A DNA stretch of 64,000 nt from Escherichia coli (lineage in GTDB: Bacteria; Pseudomonadota; Gammaproteobacteria; Enterobacterales; Enterobacteriaceae), in assembly GCF_044324875.1 (NCBI RefSeq), contig NZ_CP172185.1; one strand, 5' to 3'. The number at the start of each line of letters is the position of its first letter. The stretch's first letter is position 1. The notes under the pieces are model-generated. The model saw nothing but the letters and a program-made list of their open reading frames with translations, was not told the origin of the DNA and made no database searches. Positions 25,844 to 39,529 of the stretch are shown here, piece by piece. The translations under genes were made by a program, and so were the position numbers.

Positions 25844-27259
25844 TTATTTCAGCCCCAGGGCGGCTTTCATGGTGTAGAAGAGATCGGTCTGGTCGGTCAG
25901 TCCAACGACATTGGCGGCATGTGGGCCATACGCAGCAATACGCAGCTGACTACCGGTATGTTCTTGTGAATCCTCTTCAGAGTTCCCGTAACTCATCACC
26001 ATCACTGCGCCATCTTTGGTATTTAGCGCCTGGGTGAGGCCCGGCGCTTTGGTGTCCGGCGCAACAATCTGGCTGGCGTGGGCGTGATCAGCGGTGACTA
26101 TGACCAGCGTGTTGCCATCCTTTTTAGCGAATTCCAGCGCACGTTGTACGGCTTCATCGAGATCGACCGTCTCGCCAATTTGCCCACAAGGATTCGCAGC
26201 GTGATCCTGTTTATCGATTGATGCACCTTCAACTTGCAGGAAAAAACCTTTCTCATTTTTACTCAACAATTCAATGGCTTTGTCGGTCATCTGCGCCAGG
26301 GTCGGTACGCTGTCATTACGTTGCGGATTAGGCGTACAGGTAACTGCGGGCTTGTCGATATTGCCGTGGTACGTTGCTTTCGGTCCTAGCCAGCGCACTG
26401 GCATATTGCCGTCAGCAAACAGTCCTAGCAGGGGTTTTTGCTGGTTCGCTTCCGTCACCGCATTTAGCGAGGCAGCATCACTCACCAACTGATAACCACG
26501 CGCCTGTGCCTGTTCACGCAGCGTTTTTCCCTGCCATTCGCCGACGGTTGCCGTTTCAGCAAAGGTTTTTGCGCCGCCGCCAAGCGTAACATCGGCACGA
26601 GCGTTAAGCAGCTGTTCGGTAATCGATCCTTTCCCGCCTTTTTCCAGAGCGTTACCCGGACATTTTTCACTGGTCGCGCTCGGACCGTAGCATTTGCGCG
26701 AGGTCACATGCGCCACCAGCGCGGCGGGCGTGGCATCCTGCAACTCTGCGGTAGAAACGTTACCGGTCGCCAGACCTGCGGCTTTTGCCATTTCCAGAAT
26801 CGTTGGGTGATCTTTTTCGTGAATATCGACGCCCAGCGCACCGTTATAGGTTTTGACACCGGTTGACCAGGCGGTTGCTGATGCAGCCGAGTCGGTAACG
26901 TAGTCCGGTTTGCCGGTTTTTTTATTCAGCGCATAGTGTGTGTATTGTCCGGTAAGCGGTAAGGCATCGATACCTTTAAAAAAGCCGCCCGCACCTTCGG
27001 CATAATTGCGTGCAGCAGTAATTTCCGAGTCCCCCATCCCATCGCCAATCAGCAAAATAATATTTTTTGCAGGTTTATCGCTAAGAGAATCACGCAGAGC
27101 AGCGGTCTGATCACCCGTTAAGCGGCGAGCACCGCCGGGTGCAGTAATATCGCCCTGAGCAGCCCGGTTTTCCAGAACAGGCATTTCTGGTGTCCGGGCT
27201 TTTGTCACAGGGGAAAACAGTAACGGTAAGAGTGCCAGTGCAATAGTGCTTTGTTTCAC
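25844..27259 (-). CDS. phoA: alkaline phosphatase
   Basis: 471-aa ORF recognised as PhoA (signal peptide ...[12 protein letters not shown], active-site DSAASAT). Confidence 0.95.
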
Positions 27260-27320
27260 TTTATTTTCTCCATGTACAAATACATTAAAAATAAAAACAA
27301 AGCGACTATAAGTCTCGGCC

Positions 27321-27340
27321 GTGACAGCTTTATGACAGCT
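27321..27340 (-). promoter_or_regulatory. Pho box in the phoA promoter
   Basis: Minus strand reads CTGTCATAAAGCTGTCAC upstream of the phoA start. Confidence 0.75.
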
Positions 27341-27358
27341 GTTGAAAAGATTAACTTT

Positions 27359-27619
27359 TTACTGACGAGGATGCTTCAATAGCTTCTTTACATAATTGCG
27401 CAGCAGCTCCGTATCGTCGTCAGGAATGCTGGCATCGGGCTTTACCTCGTACAGCGCCCCCTCTACCTGATCAATCAACCTTTGTTGGTCATTTTGCGCC
27501 ATATTGCGAAGCATTGCAGTGACGATAATCTCCAAAGCTTCTACCTGCGCGCACAGTTCTTTCGACTCTTCTTCTTTTTGGGCAAGCTTAAATAACAACT
27601 CAGCAATGAGATTTTTCAT
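27359..27619 (-). CDS. iraP: anti-adaptor protein IraP
   Basis: 86-aa ORF ([22 protein letters not shown]...) recognised as IraP/YaiB. Confidence 0.88.
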
Positions 27620-28080
27620 GTCTGTATTTCCTTATCCAAAGTATGGAGAAGTTAACATTATGTTTCACAACTTCATAGTGTCTGGAAGTATTATTTTTAT
27701 GACAAAGGAAATACTTTGCGCAAATATTTTTTGTTTGATTACCAGCGAAACGTTTCCCTTATTTTAATAATTACCCACACAAAATATAGGCTTTTAATTA
27801 TCAACCTTTATTATAAATAAAAGTTATGAAATATATTCTCTTCGTTAACTTATAATTAAGAGAAAAAACTCACTGCATGGCCATACAAGCCAGGAATAAA
27901 TTAGCTTCCCGTTCATCATTTTTGTGATCTTGCGCACATCATTGAGATAACGCACTTTCTTCACCAGTACGTTGCACGCTTTGTCAGCAGAAGATTGCAA
28001 CATTCTGTCAGAAGGCCGCGAATCCCCCGTTTTGTCGTGGTAATGTATGCACTTTGTGTTAGACGGGATAGGTTTTTAAG

Positions 28081-29175
28081 ATGGAAAAACTGCGGGTAGG
28101 AATCGTTTTTGGTGGTAAATCAGCGGAACATGAAGTGTCTCTGCAATCGGCAAAAAACATTGTCGATGCCATTGATAAAAGTCGCTTCGACGTTGTGCTG
28201 CTGGGCATTGATAAACAAGGGCAATGGCACGTCAGCGATGCCAGCAATTATCTGCTAAATGCAGACGATCCTGCCCATATTGCATTGCGCCCTTCGGCGA
28301 CCAGTCTTGCGCAGGTGCCTGGTAAACATGAACATCAGCTTATCGACGCGCAAAACGGTCAGCCGTTGCCGACGGTGGATGTCATTTTCCCGATTGTCCA
28401 CGGTACGCTGGGCGAAGATGGTTCTTTGCAGGGAATGCTGCGGGTCGCCAATTTACCGTTTGTAGGTTCTGATGTTCTGGCTTCAGCGGCCTGTATGGAT
28501 AAAGATGTCACCAAACGTCTGCTGCGCGATGCCGGGCTGAACATTGCGCCATTTATTACCCTGACGCGCGCTAATCGTCACAACATCAGTTTTGCCGAAG
28601 TGGAGTCTAAACTGGGGTTACCGCTGTTTGTAAAACCGGCTAATCAGGGCTCTTCTGTTGGTGTCAGCAAAGTAACCAGTGAAGAACAGTACGCAATTGC
28701 CGTCGATCTGGCGTTCGAGTTCGACCATAAAGTGATCGTTGAGCAAGGGATCAAAGGTCGTGAGATCGAATGCGCAGTTCTGGGCAACGACAATCCGCAA
28801 GCCAGCACCTGTGGCGAGATCGTACTCACCAGCGATTTCTATGCCTACGACACCAAGTACATTGATGAAGATGGCGCGAAAGTGGTAGTTCCGGCAGCCA
28901 TTGCGCCAGAAATCAACGATAAGATCCGGGCGATTGCCGTTCAGGCTTATCAGACGTTGGGATGCGCAGGCATGGCGCGTGTAGACGTGTTTTTAACCCC
29001 AGAGAACGAAGTGGTGATCAACGAGATCAACACACTGCCTGGCTTCACCAACATCAGTATGTATCCGAAGCTGTGGCAAGCCAGCGGTCTGGGTTACACC
29101 GACCTGATCACCCGTTTGATTGAACTGGCGCTGGAGCGTCACGCTGCGGATAACGCATTGAAAACCACAATGTAA
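28081..29175 (+). CDS. ddlA: D-alanine--D-alanine ligase A
   Basis: 364-aa ORF recognised as DdlA. Confidence 0.93.
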
Positions 29176-39004: not shown

Positions 39005-39529
39005 TTGTCATCCCTCCTCAGGGACGTAATAAGTTGATCCATCAATTATCAATGCATAGAAAACATCTTATGTTTCGCGTTGACGATTATGCGGCGTTAT
39101 AGAGGAATGGTTCAATTATTCTTTCCCCGAAGTCCGGTTACGGACATATATAAAGCACGGAGGAACACACAAAGAAAAAATTGATAAAGGCTTGATGTTT
39201 CAACAAGTTAACAGGAGTTCCATTTTTAAAGCATATGCATTTAAAATATCAAACACACAAACCAGACAAATAATCTATCAATAACCAATGAACTTTAAAT
39301 CATTCTGTTTTTGATAACGCAATCAAATCCGTAAAAACAATAATCCAGGGATATAAATAAAAATTAAAAATATTTTCAGTGAATATGAAATTATTGCTGT
39401 TTCTATTACAAAGATGTCATGGACTCTCTTTCATTCTCTTCTTGTCAACATCGCGACAACTTTCGTAAAACATCCCCACCCTGCTTCAGGTATACTATGC
39501 CCCTCGATTCCACAAACATCAGGCAGACC

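Follow-up and report, generated by a model that had tools for sequence, protein, structure and literature searches.

The intergenic region between iraP and ddlA

The window examined here, 64,000 nucleotides of Escherichia coli DNA (NCBI RefSeq assembly GCF_044324875.1, contig NZ_CP172185.1), carries two divergent genes, iraP, an open reading frame (ORF) of 86 amino acids (aa) at 27359..27619 on the minus strand, and ddlA, an ORF of 364 aa at 28081..29175 on the plus strand, both in agreement with the RefSeq annotation; phoA lies at 25844..27259 on the minus strand, and the window is oriented in reverse to K-12. Our subject is the DNA between iraP and ddlA (27620-28080, hereafter the gap), which is the exact 461-bp interval between the two start codons and has a counterpart of 462 bp in K-12 (NC_000913.3, 400,924-401,385). 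A sequence-only reading had described it as a long AT-rich region, and the measurements bear this out: its G+C (GC) content is 0.347 compared to 0.514 for the window, the centre ranges from 0.19 to 0.33, the minimum over 150 nt is 0.227, and 150-nt windows with a GC content of 0.28 or less make up just 0.9% of the whole 64 kb. The gap ranks third in length among the 39 intergenic gaps of the surrounding 50 kb of K-12, and similar divergent gaps lie nearby (yaiS/tauA, 615 bp, GC 0.30; hemB/yaiT, 523 bp, GC 0.34), so that it belongs to the upper tail for length and AT content and is neither unique nor exceptional. Elsewhere in the window, 150-nt GC values of 0.28 or less occur solely at 4311-4371, 39161-39321 and 44061-44301, and by K-12 gene order two of these places are probably the hemB/yaiT and yaiS/tauA gaps. 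The region is found in 5422 of 5426 complete E. coli genomes as single-copy sequence (median of one place per genome), and within the species its centre is the most polymorphic part.

Loss of two genes joined three intergenic regions

We surveyed the locus in Enterobacteriaceae with DdlA as anchor and one genome per species, which yielded 80 loci. In about 60 of the 80, iraP and ddlA are separated by a gene of ~396 aa on the iraP strand that encodes a transporter of the major facilitator superfamily (MFS); the genera that carry it include Citrobacter, Klebsiella, Raoultella, Enterobacter, Kosakonia, Leclercia, Buttiauxella and Cedecea. The MFS proteins of different genera share 83-90% amino acid identity and score 544.7 bits against the NCBIfam MdtG model NF007372, below its cutoff of 571, and the transporter is best described as an MdtG paralog. 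In many of these loci a second gene of ~235 aa, encoding an extensin-like protein (ext), adjoins ddlA, and Salmonella enterica, Salmonella bongori and Citrobacter sedlakii carry both genes in the order ddlA (minus), ext (plus), MFS (plus), iraP (plus). The Klebsiella pneumoniae genes KPN_00324 and KPN_00325 have no E. coli partner in a published ortholog table (Kim 2012).

When Salmonella DNA spanning ext and MFS was compared to the complete E. coli genomes, all 5425 that matched did so only at the paralog mdtG, with 64% identity, and no ext homolog was found among the genomes searched; because E. coli matches only mdtG, the two genes were lost rather than relocated. A tblastn search of the gap yielded no coding relic of either gene (best E = 6), and such remnants are not required of a gene-loss scar, the deletions having taken the whole coding sequences. 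The gap aligns to the three Salmonella intergenic regions as three pieces whose order is kept (Table 1). Those regions total 535 bp compared to 461 bp in the window, and by alignment the length of the E. coli gap approximates the sum of the three ancestral gaps. The MFS-iraP gap of the relatives (median length 241 bp) is AT-rich as well, with a median GC content of 0.37, and the AT-rich DNA upstream of iraP is therefore ancestral.

The E. coli locus shares with that of Salmonella and Enterobacter the flanking genes yaiZ, ddlA, iraP and psiF and, in the same order, a homologous block next to ddlA, a module with a site for the regulator CRP, a palindrome and the iraP promoters; it differs in that Escherichia lacks ext, MFS and the terminator hairpin of MFS, and in that the gaps are fused. 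The ancestral arrangement, which Salmonella, C. sedlakii, Enterobacter and a range of further genera still have, was a leftward ddlA followed by rightward ext, MFS and iraP, and on the Escherichia branch ext and MFS were deleted, which joined their three flanking intergenic regions. We conclude that the gap is probably a composite regulatory region made by gene loss that encodes neither a small RNA nor a small protein. It is ordinary in kind, a composite promoter region with a clear history of two-gene loss, and this history accounts for its length and AT richness. The sequence-only reading had reasoned that such a length could hold several promoters and regulator sites; these are present, and the chief cause of the length, the loss of two genes, was not foreseen.

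A low GC content could also point to horizontally acquired DNA or to the remnant of a mobile element inserted between iraP and ddlA. The GC content of the centre is well under the genome average, and in one E. coli O121 strain an IS1 element has inserted here; nevertheless, most of the gap aligns in order to intergenic regions of Salmonella and Enterobacter, the homologous MFS-iraP gap of the relatives is itself AT-rich, and the sequence occurs at a median of one place per E. coli genome. We consider a foreign origin highly improbable, and the single-copy state speaks against a repeat or mobile origin of the AT-rich centre.

Both ext and MFS are also missing from Klebsiella sp. BIGb0407 (L063), an uncultured member of the Enterobacteriaceae (L068), an uncultured Cedecea (L069) and Citrobacter sp. 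R56 (L015), in which 600-680 bp separate iraP from ddlA, suggesting that the loss happened repeatedly and independently. On the other side of iraP, S. enterica (L089), S. bongori (L090) and C. sedlakii (L091) lack phoA between iraP and psiF (locus positions ~4270-4620), where Escherichia and several Citrobacter do carry it; gene content was therefore altered on both sides of iraP.

Five conserved islands and the stretches between them

As a neutral yardstick we used four-fold degenerate sites in ddlA, phoA and iraP, at which identity to Escherichia albertii is 0.57-0.66. Five short islands of the gap exceed this range (Table 1), and the four stretches between them have identities of 0.47-0.60. 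Three further loci reached through relatives of IraP did not enter the comparison, as L092 stops at a contig end, L093 is a poor assembly and L094 has an unrelated gene arrangement. Purifying selection has kept the islands, that is, the iraP leader and promoters, the palindrome, an AT-rich island, the CRP module and the ddlA block, and the AT-rich stretches between them, whose identity does not exceed the neutral level, explain much of the length and the low GC content. The result is a base-level map of conservation across the gap.

Table 1. Features of the iraP-ddlA gap (window coordinates; identities of islands are to E. albertii)
Feature	Position	Strand	Identity	Basis or comment
iraP-ddlA intergenic region	27620..28080			MFS-iraP, ext-MFS and ddlA-ext gaps, fused after two-gene loss
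Salmonella ddlA-ext gap, aligned	28080..27999		84%	
Salmonella ext-MFS gap (inside), aligned	27927..27905		96% over 23 nt	
Salmonella MFS-iraP gap, aligned	27836..27626		63%	
Island 1: iraP 5' untranslated region, Shine-Dalgarno region and two promoters	27620..27705	-	0.90	mapped starts and conservation
Island 2	27738-27762		0.84	
Operator-like palindrome CCAGCGAAACGTTTCCCTTA, core GAAACGTTTC at 27747-27756	27742..27761			rbsD operator match and conservation
NagC site aataattacccacacaaaatata	27767..27789			in silico prediction by FITBAR
Island 3: very AT-rich stretch (GC 0.19)	27797..27850		0.87	conserved in Escherichia only
ORF of 67 aa annotated by a pipeline as "hypothetical protein" (in K-12-like strains, WP_001300163.1)	27801..28003	-		judged not a gene
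Island 4: orphan promoter module of the lost MdtG-like MFS gene	27890..27940	-	0.86	homology to the region upstream of MFS
CRP site TGTGATCTTGCGCACA	27923-27938	-		TGTGC-GCAAGA-TCACA on the iraP strand (27938..27923)
Module parts: spacer ATGATGAACGGGAAG and, at the position given, -10-like TAATTT	27903..27898	-		
Island 5: ddlA promoter and 5' untranslated region	27986..28080	+	0.91	conservation; promoter predicted
Relic of ext promoter -10, CAGAAT, decayed	28007..28002	-		homology to K. pneumoniae ext -10

The gap probably encodes neither a small protein nor a small RNA

The sequence-only reading had allowed for an unannotated small protein. The one annotated candidate is the 67-aa ORF on the iraP strand that the Prokaryotic Genome Annotation Pipeline (PGAP) calls intact, as WP_001300163.1, in BL21 and CFSAN061772. 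The window carries a truncated 52-aa version (27845..28003), RefSeq records the ORF as frameshifted or with an internal stop in 118UI, RM8385 and KE48, and frameshifts or stops break it in six of the nine sequences compared (the window, 118UI, RM8385, KE48, L079, which is a further Escherichia lineage, and E. albertii). The stops fall at codon 41 (O103, KE48), codon 45 (L079) and codon 19 (E. albertii, which has multiple stops), and the start codon is TTG in K-12 and ATG elsewhere. No NCBIfam family covers the ORF, and the segments that make up most of it are no more conserved than neutral sites. The curated K-12 annotation has no gene in the gap, although it lists the small proteins ykiC, ykiD and ytiB, known from ribosome profiling, nearby. 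In all this the ORF does not differ from spurious automated small-ORF calls: it is family-less, spread over thousands of RefSeq genomes and often flagged as a pseudogene, and it behaves like a non-coding ORF.

A shorter ORF could begin at the conserved ATGATGAAC, as the ATGATGA motif is kept across genera. In other genera, however, the frames that follow ATGATGA end after 7-8 codons and vary in sequence, and conservation extends to third codon positions, as it would in a promoter spacer and -10 element. Whether as the 67-aa ORF or as this shorter frame, a small protein encoded in the gap is thus scarcely credible, and the ORF annotated in thousands of E. coli genomes in RefSeq is in our judgement not a gene.

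An unannotated small RNA or structured leader RNA in the AT-rich centre, the other product that had been considered, gains some support from folding: the minus strand of 27742-27891 folds at -37.1 kcal/mol with z scores of -3.6 to -4.5 in the window strain, K-12 and 118UI, and the orphan promoter of island 4 could provide a 5' end. The fold is built from AT-rich inverted repeats, and its signal is lost in KE48, L079 and E. albertii (z from -0.9 to +0.4); we rejected this segment as a conserved RNA, given that it is strong in some E. coli lineages and gone in others and in E. albertii. The segments on either side of the conserved islands show no conservation above the neutral level, Rfam returned nothing meaningful on the window at the permissive threshold of E <= 10 and no match at the gathering threshold on five related loci, and no terminator-like site was found on either strand between 27300 and 28300. 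On the iraP strand, glucose-grown cells gave no capped 5' ends between K-12 v2 398889 and 400543. We therefore regard a small RNA as very improbable, though a shade less so than a small protein.

Two promoters drive iraP

Transcription start sites on the iraP strand have been mapped in two independent datasets from K-12 in mid-log growth on glucose. A start at K-12 v2 400587, which corresponds to window position 27642, was reported by Kim 2012, and Cappable-seq detects it (score 168) together with a stronger start at 400543 (score 298; window 27686) and a weak one at 400561 (window 27668), with no further start back to 398889. The proximal start (27642) is preceded by what would be an extended -10 element, TG (27657-27656) followed by T and TAACTT (27654..27649), and the distal start (27686) by a candidate -10 AAAAAT (27698..27693); we infer these assignments from spacing, as both TGnTAACTT and AAAAAT end 7 nt before their starts. 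The two hexamers, the -35-like CTTTGCA/CTATGAA and the ribosome-binding site AAGGA are kept in ~30 taxa. With starts mapped twice over and correct -10 spacing, iraP has two promoters of the sigma-70 type. A consensus promoter scan gave three hits compared to a shuffle mean of 2.6, i.e. no excess, and since the two mapped iraP promoters have no -35 element, it picked up neither of them. RNA folding revealed no unusual structure in the iraP 5' untranslated regions or in that predicted for ddlA.

The mapped leaders measure 23 and 67 nt, and the rest of the gap is untranscribed in the glucose-grown datasets, which makes "leader region", as the gap had been called, a poor label. According to reviews, guanosine tetraphosphate (ppGpp) and DksA activate the iraP promoter (PMC10948607, citing Bougdour & Gottesman 2007; Girard et al. 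2018), and 27642 and 27686 would be the starts of the promoters by which this activation reportedly occurs. The published promoter and the one described here share the gene and the region, the mapped starts lying in the island that adjoins iraP; they differ in that the upstream palindrome and the CRP module did not come up in the searchable literature.

A palindrome upstream of iraP resembles the RbsR operator

Island 2 contains the palindrome CCAGCGAAACGTTTCCCTTA, which is centred 65.5 nt upstream from the distal start of iraP and matches the K-12 rbsD operator TCAGCGAAACGTTTCGCTGA (read from the K-12 sequence) at 17 of 20 positions; the 14-bp box GCGAAACGTTTCGC is matched at 13 of 14 positions (27745-27758; K-12 v3 401,247-401,260), and the core GAAACGTTTC occurs once in the window compared to 0.10 expected occurrences. 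At a fixed distance from iraP, matches of at least 14/20 to the rbsD operator were present in 36 of 66 loci, with centres 117-133 nt before the iraP ATG, but in only 5 of 1320 shuffles, and in the cross-genus alignment the palindrome is the most invariant block upstream of iraP. Judged from this conservation, the palindrome is functional.

The rbsD operator is bound by RbsR, a member of the LacI family. It shares with the palindrome the core GAAACGTTTC and an identical half-site, GTTTCGCTG(A), and differs in that the palindrome has one imperfect half-site and sits ~65 nt before a start site, neither overlapping it nor closely following it. RbsR may be the protein that reads the palindrome, and another LacI-family protein could take its place; the operators of PurR, Cra and GalR, compared by eye in the form that we take to be their consensus sequences, fit it less well. 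The rbsD promoter region itself (L095 1243-1263, K-12 rbsD upstream) carries a further copy of the operator core, the imperfect TAAAACGTTTCGAG, beside a CRP-like site, and this copy resembles the element upstream of iraP in Klebsiella, GGTAAAACGTTTCGCTG.

In a Salmonella screen, deletion of rbsR lowered the level of RpoS protein and left rpoS transcription unchanged, and insertions in iraP came from the same screen. The authors of the screen proposed an indirect post-transcriptional or post-translational route, citing an effect of rbsD mRNA, and iraP was not examined there; apart from this work, the searchable literature yielded no paper that treats RbsR and iraP together in depth.

Island 4 is probably the orphaned CRP-dependent promoter of the lost transporter gene

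Island 4 has its homologue in the DNA that precedes MFS in Salmonella, Citrobacter and Enterobacter. In ~30 loci that keep MFS, the sequence TGTGA-N6-TCACA lies 128-131 nt ahead of the MFS start codon and is followed by the spacer ATGATGAnnGGGnAGA and by a TAAAAC, TAAAAT or CAAAAT hexamer that starts 27.5 nt from the centre of the site; E. coli keeps the CRP site, an identical spacer and, in the same register, TAATTT. In loci of the Enterobacter type the module is found between ext and MFS, which assigns it to the transporter gene and not to ddlA.

CRP binds the site in the gap in vitro with a dissociation constant of ~1.2 nM (Footprint-seq), and in enterotoxigenic E. coli (ETEC) H10407 chromatin immunoprecipitation sequencing (ChIP-seq) places a CRP peak on TGTGCGCAAGATCACA in vivo, which the authors assign to ddlA. 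The sequence TGTGATCTTGCGCACA matches the CRP core at 9 of 10 positions. Since the count of CRP motifs in the window is not above chance (2 compared to 1.76 expected), the case for CRP rests on these published binding data.

The module resembles class II CRP promoters such as galP1 and melR, in which CRP sits near -41.5: a -10-like hexamer follows a TGTGA-N6-TCACA site at a constant distance, CRP binding is documented, and relative to the predicted start at ~27889-27891 (K-12 v3 ~401,113), which would be directed at iraP, the centre of the CRP site would lie at ~-39.5 to -41.5. Unlike those promoters, the module has lost the gene that it served, its relic hexamer is weak, and no start has been mapped at it in E. 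coli, nor in K. pneumoniae for the intact MFS gene. No start near the module appears in the glucose mid-log K-12 datasets, a condition in which cyclic AMP (cAMP)-CRP is low. Between the module and iraP the window has no terminator, at the place where Salmonella has the hairpin of MFS. The module may drive a long iraP transcript, may act on ddlA from a position of ~-122, or may be bound without consequence.

An effect on ddlA, be it activation or repression, in place of a transcript towards iraP, is what the ChIP-seq authors' choice of the nearest gene would imply. The site is conserved in Escherichia, and gene loss brought it from more than 800 bp to ~150 bp of the ddlA start codon. Its centre nevertheless lies ~122 nt upstream of the start predicted for ddlA from the extended -10 element at 28038-28046. 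Such a position is not usual for CRP acting alone with class I or class II spacing and thus weighs against an action on ddlA, as does the fact that in the relatives the CRP site travels with MFS and not with ddlA. We judge an action on ddlA unlikely.

Somewhat less unlikely, though still doubtful, is that the module is a non-functional relic in which an undecayed site binds CRP without regulatory consequence. Many CRP sites detected by ChIP show no detectable regulatory output, the TAATTT hexamer is weak (and reads GAATTT in E. albertii), and, as said, no start has been mapped nearby. A mere relic is at odds with the conservation of the module, which is 0.86 identical to E. albertii compared to 0.47-0.60 for its flanks and 0.57-0.66 for four-fold sites (binomial P ~8e-4, which like the P values of the other islands is indicative only, the boundaries having been chosen post hoc among three lineages). 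Furthermore, no Escherichia sequence compared has lost either CRP half-site, and Citrobacter sp. R56, which is also without ext and MFS, keeps the module with a TAAAAT hexamer.

Besides the module, this Citrobacter strain has preserved more of the leader of MFS than has E. coli. In the 5' leaders of MFS (e.g. L036 1543-1690, minus strand; L089 2400-2498), two motifs between the CRP-dependent -10 element and the MFS start codon, CGCA(T/C)CTCTGG and CTTGCTAA(G/T)CT, are conserved across genera, a further CRP-like site (TGTGA-N6-GCACC) is present in Salmonella and Citrobacter, and no Rfam family corresponds to the MFS 5' leader. The ETEC H10407 ChIP-seq data hold a second CRP peak (463095), inside phoA and ~1.2 kb away (TTTGCGCGAGGTCACA).

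The ddlA side and the centre of the gap

The 82 bp that adjoin ddlA are conserved throughout the Enterobacteriaceae and are 84% identical to the Salmonella ddlA-ext gap. They include the conserved motif TG-n-TA(A/T)(T/G)(G/T)T at 28038-28046, which reads TG-G-TAATGT in the window and which we take as a predicted extended -10 element of a predicted ddlA promoter, with a start expected near 28053. The ext gene of K. pneumoniae (KPN_00324) has a mapped start with the -10 element CATAAT at a homologous position (Kim 2012); this position reads CAGAAT in the window and AAGATT in K-12. The expectation that the gap holds several promoters and regulator sites is supported, with three iraP-sense starts, two of them strong, a site bound by CRP, a conserved palindrome and a conserved block with the predicted ddlA promoter.

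Island 3 is 0.93 identical to its counterpart in L079, and the cross-genus alignment shows no conservation of it outside Escherichia. It holds a perfect TATAAT on the minus strand (27815..27810), where Cappable-seq detects no start. The NagC site predicted by FITBAR, which is probably not functional, falls in a segment, 27763-27796, that is just 0.54 identical to E. albertii and thus no more conserved than neutral sites.

Possible carbon-source inputs to iraP

Taken together, the palindrome and the CRP module raise the tentative possibility that the carbon source acts directly, by inputs not described so far, on iraP and hence on the stability of RpoS, through an RbsR-type operator and, in Escherichia, through a CRP promoter. 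The putative operator would precede the distal iraP promoter by 65 nt, not only in Escherichia but also in Salmonella, Enterobacter and many further genera. Were RbsR to bind it, the fall in RpoS protein on deletion of rbsR in Salmonella, at unchanged rpoS transcription, would be explained, and a direct link between RbsR and iraP, if true, would fill the missing route of that screen. In Escherichia only, loss of MFS and its terminator would have put iraP directly downstream of a CRP-dependent promoter, from which cAMP-CRP could drive an iraP transcript with a long leader starting near 27890. The CRP site, which others count as a new target of CRP or as one associated with ddlA, belongs to the promoter that a lost transporter gene left orphaned, a clear example of gene loss leaving, and perhaps rewiring, a transcription factor site, and both this point and that on RbsR are potentially relevant to the field of the general stress response.

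Several observations weigh against our interpretation of the gap. The conservation pattern draws on three Escherichia lineages (E. coli, L079 and E. albertii), with island boundaries drawn post hoc, and 27797-27850 is conserved in addition to the elements that the interpretation accounts for. The minus strand of 27742-27891 folds unusually well in the window strain and K-12 (z from -3.3 to -4.5). The glucose-grown mid-log K-12 cultures behind the start-site data are a condition in which CRP-dependent or ribose-responsive promoters would be silent, and the data cover the iraP strand. The GAATTT found at the relic -10 position in E. albertii, in place of TAATTT, weakens the idea of an active orphan promoter. 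In K. pneumoniae grown in glucose medium, the mapped start of yaiB lies at the edge of the palindrome (Kim 2012), a position unlike that of a simple RbsR-repressed promoter, which calls for caution. Either of the two iraP starts may be the one activated by ppGpp, and a binding site for CsgD may lie at the iraP promoter as well.

Neighbouring features

In the 99-bp gap between iraP and phoA (27260-27358; GC 0.30), the Pho box of phoA, ctgtcataaagctgtcac, lies on the minus strand at 27320-27345. Cappable-seq detects several weak iraP-sense starts within iraP and before phoA (K-12 v2 400650-400995). In the E. coli O121 strain 201805972 (L007, locus positions 1889-2986; approximately 27470-27835 in the window), the IS1 insertion has hit the AT-rich centre of the gap and iraP lacks its N-terminal half, so that this strain has no functional iraP or iraP promoters.

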